Source of the DNA: Pseudomonadota bacterium | GTDB lineage: Bacteria > Bdellovibrionota_B > Oligoflexia > Oligoflexales > RGVZ01 | Assembly: GCA_041178085.1 (NCBI GenBank) | Contig: JBEGVZ010000008.1 | Span: 1 to 15,796 of the forward strand | Reading direction: 5' to 3' | Length of the DNA: 15,796 bases | Part shown: one piece after another, positions 1 to 9,000 of the stretch | How the letters are laid out: the number at the start of each line of letters is the position of its first letter | Numbering within the stretch: the first letter of the stretch is position 1 | Program-made: the position numbers

Positions 1-3000
1 GTTTGCGGTAGGTCTCCTCCAGGAAATCATTCAAGTACTCCAGATGGTGATCGACCTGCGCACTGCTCTTGCGCGTAAAACGCATCGACGTCCCGGAGAT
101 GGGAAACAAAGCATCCGAATCGCCCGAGATCACCGACACTGCGTCTCGATAGAAGCGCTGGAAATCTGGAAGCCAACTGGTCACCTGTACGGGGCGGATT
201 TCTGCCCCGATACTTGGCGGCATCGCCGGCGCGACATCAAAGTCTGTAAGCCACTCAACCCTGTCGCCACTCACATTGGCAACAAAGCTAACAGGTGCAT
301 CGTTGAAAAGGGCAGGCTGAGGTAATTCAATGCCGAACCTGCGCGCCGCAGCCGGCGCACACTGCGCGTAAAGAGGACGCAGGTCCGGATTGTTCCAGGC
401 CGACAGAACGGAATTTCCTCCGTCCTGGTCCACCCAAATGATGTCCCCGAAAACTGGCTTCGAATCGAGGTCGTCGAAGTCAAGGAAGTCATCGAAAATC
501 AGATGATGATCGGAATCACTGGCTGTGTCGTATTGCACGGGTAGATGGAAGTGGGGCTCGTCCCCTGCGTCCTCGCTATCTTGGAGGACATCCGCACCAA
601 GCCATATCCAGGGCGAAGATGCGTCAACGCGGTAACGCGCCCAAGTCCATGTATCCTCGCCCAGAGCACTGCGCGTAGGCCAGCCCTCAAACTGAAGGCT
701 GCGTCCCGCGGCGTTTGCCGATAATTCACGGGCAAGGCGCTGCAACTGCGCCTCACCTGCCACTCTTTGATCTCTGCGAATCGCCGGCCTGCCGGCAAGA
801 TGAATGCGACTCCGAAGGTGAGGGAGCGCCTTTCGCCCCGTCTGAAATGGCGGTGTCCGCTCTGAGTTTGCATAGGGAACTTCACCTGGGCGCAAACCAG
901 GAGCAATCGAACTCAATGGCGCAAAACGCACATCGACCGGCGCGGGAAGCAGGCCGAGCCTATCACGAGACGGGCAATCGACCGCAGCTTGCTGCTGACG
1001 CGCAGCCGACGCCACCGCAGCGCCCAGGCAAATCGAAACAAGAACGGTCTTTAAAGGCAAACCCTGCAAGTTCGCACTCCGCTATGAAAATCAATCGAGG
1101 CGCGTGATTGCATCCCGGTCGAAAGACGACGGCACCTGACCACCGGGATTCCGGATGGTCATGCCAAACTGGAAGTGTTTGACATGGATATCCACATCAT
1201 GCCAGCGATCCATGAATTCAGAGCGCGGGATAAACGTGTAATTCCCCCGCGCAGAGGGATCCATCATGTAAACGTTTTCGTGATCGATTCCGTTGACGAC
1301 CACAAAATGACCGTCGTCCCAGTTTGTGCGCCAGTCAATGTCCGGTGAATCCCGGTAAGCCTGAATCAAGACAAGGACGGGTGTCCCGGCTTTGACGGAC
1401 TGCTCAAGCGAATCGAGGGTCCAGCCATCACTCCAATCGACCACCAGACCCAGAGAGCGCGCGTAACGGAAGATGTTTGCAATCGTCGTCCCATGAACAT
1501 TGTCTGACTTCATTTCACGGGCAAGGTGATCTTCGGAAAAATCAAACGCGGGGTTCAACCAGTGCAGGAGCGATCCTACAGCTGCTGCACCACACGTGTA
1601 ATTCGTCGCTTGTCTGGTGATGGGAAGGTGAATCAGTCCAGGAACATTGCCAACGCGGGGTTGGTCACCGGTTGCGGCCGGCCGTGATGCCGGACCCATG
1701 CCAAGCAAGATCCCTGCGAGGCCAAGCGATGCCAGCTTCATCTTGAACACTGATCGCACTGCTTAAGTGTCCCTGCGATTTACAAGGCGGCTCAAAGGTG
1801 AACACATCGAACACCAATTCCGTGAACCGCTGCACTGAACTTGGGCCCTGCAAAACCTTCGCCAGAGCGTTTTGCCAGGAAATTCCGATGCGGACTTTTT
1901 TAACTTCTAGTAATACGTTTACCCCAGACAACCCGGCTTCCACAAGGACAAACCCGGCGTGAAATTTTTCTGGACATGGGCCCGTCAGAAGAGCGCAGCG
2001 CACCCGGAAATCTCGGGCAGCGAAGGCTGTTGGATCCGCGCAACGGATGGCGCACAGATCCTCGACGCCATGTCCAGCAACTTTCAAGCCGCCTTTGGCC
2101 ACAGCTGTGCGCCTGTCAAGACAGCCATCCACCGCCAGATCGATGAAATGCCACTGGCGAGCCCGAAACACAACTTTGCACTGAAAAGAACCGTCAGCGA
2201 AAAGCTCTGTGCCCTGGTCCAAAGCGGACCAGGGCGGATCTTCTTCACAGTCTCTGGGGCTGAATCCGTCGAAAATGCGCTGAAGATGGCGCGTCAAGTG
2301 ACTGGCCGTCCGCTGGTGGTGGCGCGCTCAAAGAGCTACCACGGCGCGACCATGGGAGCGATGTCGGTGACCGGTGACTGGCGCGGTCAGGGCCACTTTG
2401 GAGTGCAGGCGTCGACCATTCGCATCCCGGAGCCGGCCGATGATCCCGATCTTGTCGCAACCAGACAAATCATCGCCGACGCCGGCCCACAGAATATTGC
2501 CGCCATGTGTCTTGAAACCATCTCAGGGATGAATGGCGTCATTATTCCGCCGATGTCCTGGTGGCAGGGGATTTCGGCGTTGTGCAGGGAACATGGAATC
2601 CTGCTCATTGTGGACGAAGTGAGCTGCGGATTCTGGCGCACAGGTGCCCCCCTGGCCTTGCATCATTACGGACTGAAACCAGATTTTGTGTGCATGGCAA
2701 AGGCCATCTCTGCTGGCTATGTGCCGTTTGGTGCCCTCTGGGCAAGTGAAACGGTGGCGTCCTATTACGATCAACAGGTGCTGTCCGCTGGGCTTACCGC
2801 CTATGCCCATCCCGTCGGACTTGCGGCGACCAATGCGGTCCTCGACCTGCTCAAGGATGGTTCATTTCAGTCGCAACTGCGCAATGTATCGGCGCGCTTT
2901 GGACAACTCATAAACCAGCTGCGCGCGCACCATCGCGTCAAAACCACGCGCTGGATAGGCATGATGGCTGCCATCGATTTGGAGCCGGGGCCGGCAATCT

Positions 3001-6000: not shown

Positions 6001-9000
6001 GGAGCGCTTCCTTGGCATGACCGCGTGACCATGATGCGCAAAGCTGCAGACGTGATCCGCGAGCGAAAGATGACACTGGCCGCGGCGGTTTGCATGGAGA
6101 CAGGCAAGAATCGCATGGAGGCTCTGGGTGACGTCGAGGAATCATCCGACCTGATCGACTACTACGCCACCCAACTGGAGATGGCGGACGGCTTCTACCA
6201 ACCTCTTGCCAGCCTGCTCCCCGGTGAGGTGACTGGCAGCTGGCTTCGCCCTTACGGCGTTTTTACTGTGATTGCGCCCTTTAATTTTCCGGTAGCGCTG
6301 GCCGCAGGCATGGCGGGGGCCGCCATGCTAGGGGGTAACTCTGTCATTTTGAAACCCAGTGAGGACACACCGTGGTCTGGTGAACTTCTTCTCCAAGTCA
6401 TGCGCGATGCAGGCATTCCCGAAGGGGTTTTCCAACTGTGCCAGGGGCGCGGCAGTGTGGTCGGCAATGCCCTTGTGCGCCATGACGGCATTGCTGGCGT
6501 TGCCTTCACTGGCAGCGTCAAGACAGGGATGGCGATTCACAATATTTGTGCTTCTGGGCGATGGATCAAGCCATGCCTGATGGAACTTGGCGGGAAAAAT
6601 GGCGTGATCATCATGCCCGGCGCGAACTTGGATGACGCTGCGACAGGCTCGATCAAATCCGCCTTTGGCCTGTCAGGCCAAAAGTGCAGCGCCCTTTCCC
6701 GTATCATTGTCCATCAGGACATCAAGGATGCGCTCATCGAGCGTCTGGCTGCGGTAGCACAAACGTGGGTAGTTGCCGAAGCCACGCGCCACGAATGCAG
6801 CCTTGGGCCCGTCATCAACGCCGCCTCGGTTGCCCGTGCGGAACGTTCCGCGGCACTGGCAGCAACATCTGGTGGTCGCATAATTTATCGCCATCAGAAT
6901 GTCGCTACGGATAATCCTGCGGGTCACTATGTCATGCCGGTCCTCGCGGAACTTCCTCCATCACATGAACTCATGCAGCAGGAACTTTTCCTGCCGTTTG
7001 CTGGAATCACTGCGGTTCGTTCGTTTGAAGAGGCCATTTCTGTCTTGAACAACACCGACTTTGGATTGACGGCCGGAATTTTCTCTGGTGACGACCGTGA
7101 AGTAGAGCGCTTCTTTGAAGAAGCAGAAGCAGGCGTCCTTTACGCCAACAGAAAAACTGGCGCGACCACCGGTGCATGGCCCGGAGTCCAGTCTTTCTGC
7201 GGCTGGAAAGCCAGCGGCGGCAGCGGCAAGGGTGGCTGCGGCCCTTGGTACGTATCCCAATTCATGCGCGAACAATCACGGACCTGGATGAAATAAATAG
7301 AAACTCGGACGATTTGACCGGAGGACATCATGAACCCATCCAAAATTGAAAAACTATTTCCGAAGGTTTCCGGTCCGCTGCCCGGCCCCCGGGGACGGGC
7401 GATCATCGCCCAGGATGAATCTTGTACCTCTCCTTCCTATATCAAGGAGTATCCGCTGGTTGCTGACCGCGGACAGGGCTGCTTCATTGATGATGTCGAT
7501 GGTAACCGCTTTTTGGACATGATGGCAGGAATCGCCGTCAGCGCGACCGGCTATGCACATCCTCATGTGATGGGGGCTGTGCGCGAAGCCCTCGACAAAG
7601 TCTGGCACGTCTGTGGCACTGATTTTTATACAGATTCGTTTTCGCGGCTTTGCGCCAAGCTTTCTGGTTACGTCCCGGACATGGGCAAAAAACGCGTCTT
7701 CCTGACCAACTCCGGCACAGAAGCCATCGAAGGTGCAATGAAGTTGGCGCGTTATCACACCCGTCGCAAAGGTTTTCTCTCGTTTTATGGCGGCTTTCAC
7801 GGGCGGACGCTGGGAGCCTTGTCCCTCACGGCATCCAAGATCCGGCAACGGGAGCACTTCGGCCCGTTCATCCCGGGTATCGTCCACGCAGAGTACCCGG
7901 ACGTCCTGCGTCGCCCTGTGGGAATGACGCCAGAGGAATGCGGGCTGGAGGCGATTCGCAAGATCGAACGCAGCCTGTTCAACAAAGTCGTCTCCCCCAA
8001 CGAACTTGCAGCCATCTTTGTCGAACCAATCCAGGGAGAAGGCGGCTATGTCGTCCCGCCGAAATCATTTCTGAAGGGCCTCCGGGAACTCTGCGACCGC
8101 CACGGAATCCTGCTGGTTTTTGATGAAGTGCAGAGTGGCGTGGGCCGCACCGGGGAAATGTACGCAGCGGAATATTTTGATGTCGCTCCCGACATACTTC
8201 TTTCTGCAAAGGGACTCGGCTCTGGTCTGCCGATCGGCGCCATCATTGCACGCGAAAACGTCATGACCTGGACTCGCGGCACCCATGGCAGCACGTTTGG
8301 GGGCAATAATGTCTCCTGTGCGGCGGCCATCGCAACCCTGGAAGTGGTTGAGCGCATGCTGCCCGAGATCCGCAAAAACGGGGAACTGCTGTCGGCCGGG
8401 CTGCGCGACCTGGGCAAGAAGCACGCGGCCATCATGGATGTCCGCGGCCCTGGCTTCATGATCGGAATGGAAATGGCAGATCCGGCCTCGGGCGCCCCCG
8501 TCCCGGAACTCATGGCCGACCTGGAACAGATGGCCTTCCGCGAAGGGCTGTTGCTGCTGGGCTGCGGAGCCTCGACCATCCGTTTTGCCCCGCCCCTTGT
8601 CTGTGGCGCACATGAAATCGCGATTGCACTGGAAATTCTTGATCGATGCCTGACAAAATTGACGCCAAAGCATAAGATGTCTTGAGTCAAAAATAGCAAT
8701 CTTCCGTGGGGGTCAAGGATCGATGCCCGCAAATAGACCAAGATGGTGGCTTGCCGCAGCCGTGCTCGCTGCGGGCGTGAGCATGCCGCTACAAAGTGCG
8801 TTCGCCGTCAAAGGCAAAACCTGGGAAATGTCCCTCGGACTGGCTTCCCGCCACATCGGGACCACAACCAAAAAAGAGTCTGGCGCCCCGGACAGCATGG
8901 GCTTACCCATGGGTCACCTGGGCGTCCAGTACCACGCGGCCTTCCGCAAGTGGTTCATCAGCCCGTGGTTCCGGTATGCGCCGGAGGCCATGGTGTTTGA

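Follow-up and report, generated by a model that had tools for sequence, protein, structure and literature searches.

In ornithine catabolism, an ornithine aminotransferase (OAT) and a P5C dehydrogenase (P5CDH) follow a logic of terminal transamination, formation of a cyclic imine and oxidation, with PH1423 and TK2101 representing the Thermococcales. The lower beta-ketoadipate pathway comprises PcaIJ/CatIJ, PcaF and PcaR, and a lysine route with two aminotransferases and one aldehyde dehydrogenase (LAT, P6C dehydrogenase and 2-aminoadipate aminotransferase) ends at 2-oxoadipate. Lysine fermentation (KamA, KamDE, Kdd, Kce) begins at beta-lysine formed by lysine 2,3-aminomutase. An aerobic beta-lysine route of Pseudomonas B4 reportedly consists of N6-acetylation, beta-transamination and cleavage of 3-keto-6-acetamidohexanoate, and the uncharacterised yod cluster of B. 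subtilis has the order yodT-yodS-yodR-yodQ-yodP-kamA. KamA and YodT of B. subtilis are SigE-dependent, and their physiological role is given as unknown in an excerpt of PMC6522883.

The stretch of DNA analysed here, hereafter called the window, has 15,796 nucleotides and contains six genes previously noted as a candidate beta-lysine operon. The operon is real, all six ORFs being close-packed on the plus strand (intergenic gaps of 9, 1, -29, 5 and 33 nt, in order) and their families assigned by profile scores. These six and two further genes of the window are:

1959..3134, + strand, AT1, class III aminotransferase (PF00202; PRK06062 254, below the cut-off of 472)
3144..3860, + strand, subunit A of a family I 3-oxoacid CoA-transferase, ScoA/PcaI family (TIGR02429 247, above 128.5)
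3862..4554, + strand, CoA-transferase subunit B (TIGR02428 244.1, above 243.55)
4526..5722, + strand, thiolase (TIGR01930 355, above 241; PcaF model TIGR02430 260, below 597)
5728..7296, + strand, P5CDH-like aldehyde dehydrogenase, ALDH (PRK03137 388, below 648; TIGR01237 368, below 660; TIGR01236 218, below 614)
7330..8685, + strand, AT2, PRK05769-type omega-aminotransferase (PRK05769 572, above 552)
11523..12665, - strand, peptidase S58, DmpA/BapA family (PF03576), outside the operon
13969..14889, + strand, arginase (TIGR01229 285, above 228), outside the operon

The ATG of the ALDH is at 5728, and the query sequence was begun at 5731. A search for promoters and terminators at the operon gave no signal above chance. 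What is observed here is the identity of the genes and the structure of their operon, together with orthology, co-location and co-occurrence.

The module to which these genes belong probably degrades beta-lysine via 3-aminoadipate and 3-oxoadipate into succinyl-CoA together with acetyl-CoA, with the window operon as a mosaic copy; all substrates and the direction of flux are inferred from gene neighbourhoods. Beta-lysine (3,6-diaminohexanoate) would come from lysine 2,3-aminomutase or be salvaged from beta-lysyl compounds. AT2 would transfer its epsilon-amino group to 2-oxoglutarate, yielding 3-aminoadipate semialdehyde, which would cyclize to pyrroline-5-acetate, a five-membered imine and the one-carbon homologue of P5C. 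The P5CDH-like ALDH would oxidise this to 3-aminoadipate, from which a second class III aminotransferase (AT1 in the window) would strip the beta-amino group. The resulting 3-oxoadipate would be activated by the CoA-transferase using succinyl-CoA, and the thiolase would yield succinyl-CoA and acetyl-CoA. The pathway is best read as ornithine catabolism extended by one carbon: the two amines of beta-lysine are spaced as in ornithine, and beta-lysine should therefore suit a pair of OAT-like and P5CDH-like enzymes. The proposed chemistry appears complete, with an enzyme for every step and none left over.

AT2 and the ALDH resemble the ornithine pair, but the ALDH is below every P5CDH cut-off and has an altered substrate loop, a true OAT (TIGR01885 660, cut-off 378) and a true P5CDH (TIGR01236 817, cut-off 614) are present elsewhere in the genome, as had been noted, and the module adds a second aminotransferase and CoA-dependent steps for a proposed substrate one carbon longer. 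This genome already has other genes for the ornithine, proline and GABA routes. Compared with lysine fermentation, the start at beta-lysine is shared, whereas in the module both amines would be removed by transamination. Neither lysine 5,6-aminomutase (PF09043) nor the keto-acid cleavage enzyme (PF05853) was found in the source genome, which is 96 % complete; as a control, the search detected PF09043 in two of five other genomes with the module, where it would be an alternative beta-lysine sink. Beta-amino transamination followed by CoA-dependent cleavage is common to the module, the Pseudomonas B4 route and the yod cluster, but the module would oxidise the epsilon-amine first, without protection, and its product would be the diacid 3-oxoadipate, not 4-aminobutyrate. 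The LAT route has the same set of two aminotransferases and one ALDH; it requires, however, neither a CoA-transferase nor a 3-oxoadipyl-CoA thiolase, LAT is not among the best 25 models for AT2, and the ALDH scores only 261 on the P6C dehydrogenase model (cut-off 730). A route from lysine or beta-lysine to 3-oxoadipate was not found in the literature searched. As an aerobic N6-acetylation route is reported for Pseudomonas B4, the novelty would lie in the chemistry and not in aerobic use of beta-lysine, and the route proposed here is itself presumed to be aerobic.

We propose AT2 as the beta-lysine epsilon-transaminase. Its closest solved relative is 7VNO (E 1e-108), which we take to be PH1423 of P. 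horikoshii. T97-D98, R159 and K294 of AT2 align with the Thr-Asp pair, the FHGRT arginine and the PLP lysine of 7VNO, of which the Thr-Asp pair presumably helps to bind the second amine; D98, R159 and K294 are invariant in 15 aligned rows. The ALDH is a candidate 3-aminoadipate-semialdehyde (pyrroline-5-acetate) dehydrogenase and belongs to a large, unnamed subfamily, for which a threshold of E ≤ 1e-100 gives at least 7519 relatives. Its catalytic region around E285 and C319 is invariant in 15 rows, and G481-A482 and F489 are conserved as well; the Gly-Ala anchor loop, however, has Trp-Pro after it and a three-residue insertion before it. Trp-Pro was found in the module ALDHs read, compared with Met-Val in three archaeal ones adjacent to proline dehydrogenase (ProDH). 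The subfamily adjoins ProDH in 7 of 113 loci, one of which (L109) combines ProDH, arginase and the Trp-Pro loop, and other members adjoin FAD oxidoreductases, so the family is not substrate-specific. In the tree, the window ALDH nests among module copies of myxobacteria and Bdellovibrionota.

The ALDH is present in 8 of the 131 genomes of the class, the source genome included, in line with the restricted distribution described earlier. The statement that the operon is common to myxobacteria holds for two of its six genes, the ALDH (51-53 % identity) and AT2 (59-62 %), whose orthology is backed by trees, and not for the other four. A search of 251 Myxococcota genomes found no AT1; the identical query and threshold did give a match in genome G178 in a separate search. 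The operon is a mosaic copy in which AT1 and the CoA-transferase derive from a Bacteriovorax-type cassette, and it is a weaker case than the wider module. AT1, the putative 3-aminoadipate (beta-amino) transaminase, is a distinct short subfamily nearest to taurine/beta-alanine:2-oxoglutarate aminotransferases (PRK06062-like), and in the tree it clusters with PRK06062-type enzymes that occupy the equivalent slot in Acidobacteriota copies. W7 and R142 align with the N-terminal Trp and the GDWR Arg of its best solved relative, 6JIX (Foldseek rank 5), residues with a presumed functional role, and both are invariant, like K248, in 60 homologues.

The CoA-transferase is proposed to be a 3-oxoadipate:succinyl-CoA transferase. 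Its subunits pass TIGR02429 and TIGR02428, models which cannot separate PcaIJ from ScoAB, and the closest solved chains are SCOTs of the acetoacetate type. FPRQ, which we take to be a motif of classical PcaI and which occurs in a PcaI-like protein (L113:9747-10448), is replaced by YVGG; ScoA-type enzymes within cat/pcaF operons likewise have no FPRQ. Enzymes of this type, about 51 % identical to that of the window, occur in cat/ben-pcaF operons, and those beside fahA or 3-hydroxybutyrate dehydrogenase are equally similar. The window enzyme is the sole family I CoA-transferase of the genome, for which a divergent homogentisate dioxygenase could be a source of acetoacetate. The window type was found in only 5 of 21 genomes of the family, all five with the ALDH, and is therefore not a housekeeping enzyme. 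The thiolase, which may cleave 3-oxoadipyl-CoA, forms a divergent lineage-specific clade; its place in the tree is beside the FadA-type thiolase of the genome and not within the PcaF clade. It is thus not a PcaF, as had been conceded; the myxobacterial thiolases do lie near PcaF, scoring 536-540 (still below 597) and sharing a clade with a plasmid PcaF. Ring-cleavage and lactone genes are absent from the window, and one uncharacterised Dioxygenase_C match was found elsewhere in the genome, where no search was aimed at pcaBCD.

The single KamA of the genome is unlinked to the operon and family-wide (19 of 22 genomes), as previously noted. It has His at the position of Asp293 of 2A5H and Asp at that of Asp330, two residues which presumably bind the epsilon-amine of lysine, and it is under all specific model cut-offs (glutamate aminomutase model 375, lysine model 365, both far below). 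The genome also has EpmA and an EF-P carrying the PGKG motif; taken together, these features mean that this KamA may serve EF-P only. The objection that the aminomutase is never in the operon stands for the window copy and fails elsewhere, because a KamA retaining both Asp residues sits within the module in Gemmatimonadota, Elusimicrobia and D. radiodurans (kamA-x-AT2-P5CDH). Linkage was also found at L074, L084 and L312 and in a Rhizobium plasmid cluster. KamA is immediately 5' of AT2, on the same strand, in eight Gemmatimonadota regions (59-154 nt between alignment ends), and within 7 kb of the module CoA-transferase in 11 of 44 genomes. Among 201 Gemmatimonadota genomes sampled, KamA was present in 41 of 44 with the module CoA-transferase compared with 71 of 157 without it (40 of 43 and 69 of 155 when three unpublished genomes are left out), counts in which related genomes are not independent. 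KamA was thus present without the module in 71 genomes, and it was undetected in 7 of 50 genomes with the module.

The ALDH and AT2 of the window have their orthologues in a module spanning about nine phyla. Two class III aminotransferases, the ALDH and a CoA-transferase occur together in 40 of the 113 ALDH loci read, and a thiolase in just 23. The second aminotransferase is PRK07483/PRK06917-like (387-438 on PRK06917, which we take to be the YodT family) or PRK06062-like. The usual CoA-transferase is 48-50 % identical to enzymes of pcaIJF operons, and PcaF (L102 and L104; 626 and 711, cut-off 597) and PcaR (L101 and L102; 317 and 307, cut-off 285) were found above cut-off, a likeness to the lower beta-ketoadipate pathway from which the module differs in clustering without ring-cleavage genes. 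The beta-lysine route suggested in the preliminary description therefore gains independent support from the wider module, with its linked KamA and over-cut-off PcaF and PcaR, while its objections remain for the window copy, with its His-variant KamA beside EF-P/EpmA, non-PcaF thiolase and SCOT-like transferase.

The same enzymes could act in another order, AT2 and the ALDH making 2-aminoadipate from L-lysine and the aminomutase then supplying 3-aminoadipate for conversion to 3-oxoadipate. An excerpt of PMC9986279 gives L/D-Orn and L/D-Lys as substrates of PH1423, and L-lysine as accepted by TK2101 too; the His at the Asp293 position and the slightly better glutamate-model score of the genome's KamA, and saccharopine-dehydrogenase-like genes beside two copies (L097, L101) point the same way. 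We consider this order unlikely, since module-linked KamAs retain both Asp residues, the His variant occurs across the family regardless of the operon, EF-P/EpmA require a source of beta-lysine, and the ALDH is nearer to the P5CDH than to the P6C model (388 and 261 bits). A loose amino-acid cluster, with a second, arginase-fed OAT and P5CDH, an acetoacetate CoA-transferase and thiolase, and a beta-alanine/taurine-type transaminase, would account for the arginase close by, the ornithine enzyme as nearest characterised relative of AT2, ProDH beside ALDH relatives, the SCOT-like sole CoA-transferase, and AT2 being without the ALDH in 3 of 11 AT2-bearing genomes of the class (one 97 % complete). 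It is improbable given the true OAT and P5CDH elsewhere and the finding of the CoA-transferase, within the family, only in ALDH-bearing genomes, and it would explain neither the KamA, PcaF and PcaR links nor the refilling of functional slots by unrelated families in different phyla.

The substrate might instead be another beta-amino diamine or an N-acylated beta-lysine, especially for the SCOT-type version in the window with its non-PcaF thiolase; examples are 3,5-diaminopentanoate, via beta-glutamate and 3-oxoglutarate to acetoacetate, and N-acetyl-beta-lysine after deacylation. Deacylase-type (HDAC, M20) and GNAT/ATP-grasp genes adjoin several module copies, and the AT1-ScoAB cassette lies behind a different upper module in all 20 Bdellovibrionota regions read. 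However, no source of 3,5-diaminopentanoate was seen, and all 20 cassette genomes have a long KamA, of which the four read keep both Asp residues, which again indicates beta-lysine; initial deacylation would merely add one step to the favoured route. Such substrates therefore seem quite improbable. Conversion of lysine, cadaverine or 5-aminovalerate to glutarate (two transaminations, the ALDH acting twice) and on to glutaryl-CoA is very unlikely: the CoA-transferase usual in the module belongs to the glutaconate CoA-transferase family, with 1POI as its best solved chain, and the family III transferase of the D. radiodurans cluster has succinate-glutarate CoA-transferase as best model (364, below 750), but glutaryl-CoA dehydrogenase does not recur among annotated neighbours, where a single FadE-type cluster occurs, in 3 of 113 loci, and KamA, PcaF and PcaR would be left unexplained.

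Beyond beta-lysine degradation itself, we lean on balance towards a B12-independent, oxidative and undescribed lysine route in myxobacteria, Bdellovibrionota, Gemmatimonadota, Acidobacteriota, Chloroflexota, Actinomycetota and others, with three new enzyme activities, which would explain orphan KamA and pcaIJF/pcaR-like genes and in which 3-aminoadipate would be a hub for at least two upper modules, the window being a recombinant of two. If true, this would add one more route of lysine catabolism and a short series of enzymes leading from lysine to the polymer precursor 3-oxoadipate, and would mean new annotations for a subfamily of at least 7500 "P5C dehydrogenases" as well as for many CoA-transferases now assigned to "aromatic degradation". 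It would also give KamA genes of aerobes a role where none is known (that in B. subtilis being unknown according to the excerpt of PMC6522883). The route is testable in cultured organisms, namely myxobacteria, Deinococcus radiodurans and Kribbella.

Few other loci have an arginase close to the ALDH (L003 and L109, with weaker matches in L139 and L146). The peptidase S58 matches DmpA and beta-peptidyl aminopeptidase chains, and is possibly an accessory gene of the operon that frees beta-amino acids from peptides; a homologue occurs in 14 of the 113 ALDH loci, and every one of the 14 also has AT2 or a CoA-transferase.

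The six genes that the preliminary description had grouped together do form an operon, lying head to tail on the plus strand with intergenic gaps of 9, 1, −29, 5 and 33 nt. A promoter and terminator scan of the window gave signals at chance level only. The features of the window are as follows.

1959-8685, plus strand: in order, class III aminotransferase AT1, CoA-transferase A, CoA-transferase B, thiolase, P5CDH-like aldehyde dehydrogenase (ALDH; start ATG at 5728) and class III aminotransferase AT2
1091-1759, minus strand: C39 peptidase, divergent from AT1
2-1069 (minus strand), 8723-9343 (plus), 9210-10136 (plus) and 10114-11460 (minus): two proteins without family match, a matrixin-like metallopeptidase and an Lcl C-terminal domain protein
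12785-13822 and 14846-15796, both plus strand: putative flagellin-like and queuine tRNA-ribosyltransferase-like genes, recognised by sequence

AT2 scored above the PRK05769 cut-off, and its nearest solved structure is 7VNO, which we take to be PH1423 of P. horikoshii. In a table of PMC9986279, PH1423 and TK2101 appear as omega-aminotransferases that act on L/D-ornithine and L/D-lysine. The ALDH is closest to pyrroline-5-carboxylate (P5C) dehydrogenases, yet falls far below the P5CDH cut-offs, and its subfamily is a large one without a name. AT1 is nearest to the taurine:2-oxoglutarate aminotransferase 6JIX and is below the PRK06062 cut-off; with its AlphaFold model (pLDDT 90), Foldseek returned generic omega-transaminases only and no substrate call was obtained. 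No residue roles in Toa or PH1423 were found in the searched open-access literature. The CoA-transferase is SCOT-like. As the preliminary description had cautioned, the thiolase is not a PcaF (3-oxoadipyl-CoA thiolase), both by model score and in the tree, where it groups with FadA. The true ornithine aminotransferase (OAT) and P5CDH reported elsewhere in the genome were found again, together with a GABA aminotransferase, and since other genes thus cover putrescine/GABA and plain ornithine roles, these were set aside for the operon. A further cluster of the genome (G000:C73:835-7922), which combines a saccharopine-dehydrogenase-like gene, two ALDHs and a GABA aminotransferase, is likely a polyamine or lysine route.

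The amino groups of beta-lysine are spaced as in ornithine, so a pair of OAT-like and P5CDH-like enzymes fits this substrate. Epsilon-transamination would give a cyclic imine that has a five-membered ring and one carbon more than P5C, and its oxidation would lead to 3-aminoadipate; beta-transamination would then yield 3-oxoadipate, and CoA transfer followed by thiolysis would release succinyl-CoA and acetyl-CoA, the succinyl-CoA being recycled. The five activities match the five steps without a gap, with substrates that we infer throughout, and we regard this route as moderately probable. A DmpA/BapA-family peptidase is encoded near 14 of 113 ALDH loci, the window among them, and transporters and deacylases adjoin other copies of the module (AT2, a second class III aminotransferase, the ALDH and a CoA-transferase), which suggests that salvaged beta-lysyl compounds could be a second input.

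The proposed route would work like ornithine catabolism and the lower beta-ketoadipate pathway joined, but by the tests run the ALDH is not the P5CDH of the former, nor the thiolase the PcaF of the latter. Lysine fermentation was rejected for the window, as PF09043 and PF05853 were not found in the genome (96 % complete). Pseudomonas B4 reportedly has an aerobic beta-lysine route in which the epsilon-amine is protected by acetylation, a chemistry that differs from the one proposed here. The pathway variant has probably not been described before: no description of the route or cluster was found among the matches listed in the open-access literature, no paper on the route was retrieved there with 3-aminoadipate and its synonyms, the best 25 of 3955 matches held nothing relevant on aerobic beta-lysine catabolism by an aminotransferase, none of the best 30 of 216 matches in another search dealt with beta-lysine, and the best 25 of 57 in a further one neither named the acetamido intermediates nor included the Pseudomonas B4 route. 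The sole match to 'beta-aminoadipic' was a typo in a reference.

A source of beta-lysine is indicated by lysine 2,3-aminomutase (KamA) family genes, which lie inside the cluster at two loci (L074, L084) and after both aminotransferases at a third (L312). KamA occurred in 43 of 50 module and 14 of 45 'non-module' genomes, a comparison confounded by taxonomy and by partial modules in several of the latter, and a test within Gemmatimonadota was therefore preferred. In an even sample of this phylum (n = 201), KamA was present in 41 of 44 genomes with the module CoA-transferase vs 71 of 157 without it (40/43 vs 69/155 when the unpublished genomes G404, G280 and G379 were left out), kin not being independent in these counts, so that the p-value is overstated. 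More telling are the long KamA type, found in 12 of the 201 genomes, 11 of them module carriers, and the 11 of 44 carriers in which a KamA lies no more than 7 kb from the CoA-transferase. Among 17 Gemmatimonadota regions read, picked partly for closeness of kamA to the CoA-transferase, eight had kamA immediately upstream of, and co-oriented with, AT2, and two more had it next to the CoA-transferase where the contig ends; in two, a classical KamA with GNAT and two ATP-grasp genes abutted the module, one had a cut kamA fragment at the contig end, one had kamA away from the module, and three lacked it. Module-linked KamAs retain aspartates at the positions that match Asp293 and Asp330 in the clostridial lysine enzyme, two residues that bind the epsilon-amine.

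In D. radiodurans a single run (L293:5205-12024) holds a family III CoA-transferase, kamA, a small DUF4274 gene, a PRK05769 aminotransferase and a P5CDH of canonical type; PMC1274311 lists this aminomutase simply among acquired catabolic genes. Two ATP-grasp ligases with GNAT and KamA, sometimes abutting the module, were also seen at L313, L314, L411, L414, L415 and L417, from Gemmatimonadota and the Bacteroidota genome G178, and may build a small molecule containing beta-lysine that the module recycles. Two adjacent KamA-family genes, one long and one classical or short, occur in myxobacteria and some Bdellovibrionota (L247-L250, L252, L271, L272). Another module variant, on a plasmid of Rhizobium sp. 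CB3171 (L295), comprises HDAC-family, GNAT, PRK07483-like aminotransferase, FAD oxidoreductase, ALDH, 3-hydroxyacyl-CoA dehydrogenase and KamA genes.

For the lower half, the usual module CoA-transferase is 48-50 % identical to enzymes of rhizobial, Azospirillum and Streptomyces pcaIJF operons, though haloarchaea and Streptomyces have relatives of like similarity in other clusters. Thiolases at L102 and L104 exceed the PcaF cut-off and regulators at L101 and L102 that of PcaR; myxobacterial thiolases score 536-540 on PcaF, slightly below the cut-off, and cluster with PcaF in the tree. Sphingomonad catechol/benzoate operons with pcaF hold ScoA-type enzymes as similar to that of the window as any, and similar enzymes also adjoin fumarylacetoacetase and 3-hydroxybutyrate dehydrogenase, so the acceptor of the window CoA-transferase is not settled by sequence.

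The earlier objection concerning the aminomutase holds for the genome of the window, whose sole KamA (G000:C48:49718-50938 = L236:1354-2577) is unlinked to the operon, is family-wide and has His at the Asp293 position, as do four relatives read. EpmA and EF-P (PGKG) are present, and PMC2821294 describes how aminomutases divide into catabolic and EF-P ones. Members of the ALDH subfamily are found in proline-type settings too, next to proline dehydrogenase (ProDH) in 7 of 113 loci, and in FAD-oxidoreductase clusters as well. This His-variant KamA beside EF-P and EpmA, the FadA-grouped thiolase and the ProDH and FAD contexts of the ALDH keep four rivals to the beta-lysine route alive. An aminomutase acting on 2-aminoadipate is unlikely, set beside the aspartates retained by module-linked KamAs; a loose cluster for ornithine and acetoacetate, which would suit the SCOT-like CoA-transferase and has the separate OAT and P5CDH against it, is just as unlikely. 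Marginally less credit is given to another beta-amino substrate for the same enzymes, and a glutarate route, set against the PcaF-like thiolases of other copies, appears improbable. At L080, L095, L105, L296, L297 and L299 the same ALDH subfamily accompanies an aminotransferase resembling GSA aminomutase and oxidoreductases of Rieske or FAD type; these clusters would be a different cyclic imino acid route.

AT1, ScoA and ScoB occur in the same order in all 20 Bdellovibrionota regions read (of 33 matches in 251 genomes), and ALDH and AT2 are absent from these 20 regions. The upper and lower halves of the window operon are therefore of different types, and the operon is a mosaic of a myxobacterial-type upper half and a Bacteriovorax-type lower half. 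The Bdellovibrionota cassette (L450-L469, e.g. L450:2803-9468) sits behind a class III aminotransferase fusion of 950-1030 amino acids and a C45 hydrolase, probably a second upper route feeding the same lower cassette; no solved relative was found for the C-terminal 568 residues of the fusion. Each of the 20 genomes encodes a long KamA, and 19 a short one as well, counts that stand without a control group, and both Asp residues are present in the four long KamAs read.

Within the class, the ALDH was found in 8 of 131 genomes, all of one family, where 5 of 21 other genomes have the CoA-transferase orthologue, each with the ALDH. AT2 occurs in 11 of the 131, three times without the ALDH. In G079 it is on one contig and the other five operon genes elsewhere, and in G087 it alone was detected; in both, a C39 peptidase is directly divergent from the solitary AT2 (L318, L319), an arrangement which suggests that the remaining five genes were moved in or out en bloc. 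AT1 had no match in 251 Myxococcota genomes or in 300 Bacteroidota genomes other than G178.

Genes were called in 113 ALDH loci pooled from four relative listings (78 new loci; 14 of 79 with at least 48 % identity to a myxobacterial query; 20 of 53; 1 of 6), leaving out near-duplicates, short loci and distant ALDHs. Because many contigs are short the counts are lower bounds: AT2 in at least 56, a CoA-transferase in 58 (glutaconate-transferase type 48, ScoAB type 10), a thiolase in 23, and AT2 along with both a CoA-transferase and another class III aminotransferase in 40. The module carries the labels Gemmatimonadota, Myxococcota, Bdellovibrionota, Elusimicrobiota, Acidobacteriota, Actinomycetota, Planctomycetota, Eremiobacterota and Pseudomonadota; Chloroflexota have partial copies. 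The second aminotransferase is PRK07483/PRK06917-like, PRK06062-like or of the AT1 subfamily depending on lineage, and the CoA-transferase slot is likewise filled by different families, which argues for conserved chemistry rather than accidental conservation. Relatives of the window indicate Oligoflexia as its origin. In FastTree trees, which have SH-like support only and, in two cases, long branches that meet, the window ALDH and AT2 fall within the myxobacterial and Bdellovibrionota copies. Two records seem mislabelled: the ALDH of L160 (Comamonas by its label) is 97 % identical to one of Myxococcus, and three trees place L037 (Chloroflexi by its label) with Oligoflexia.
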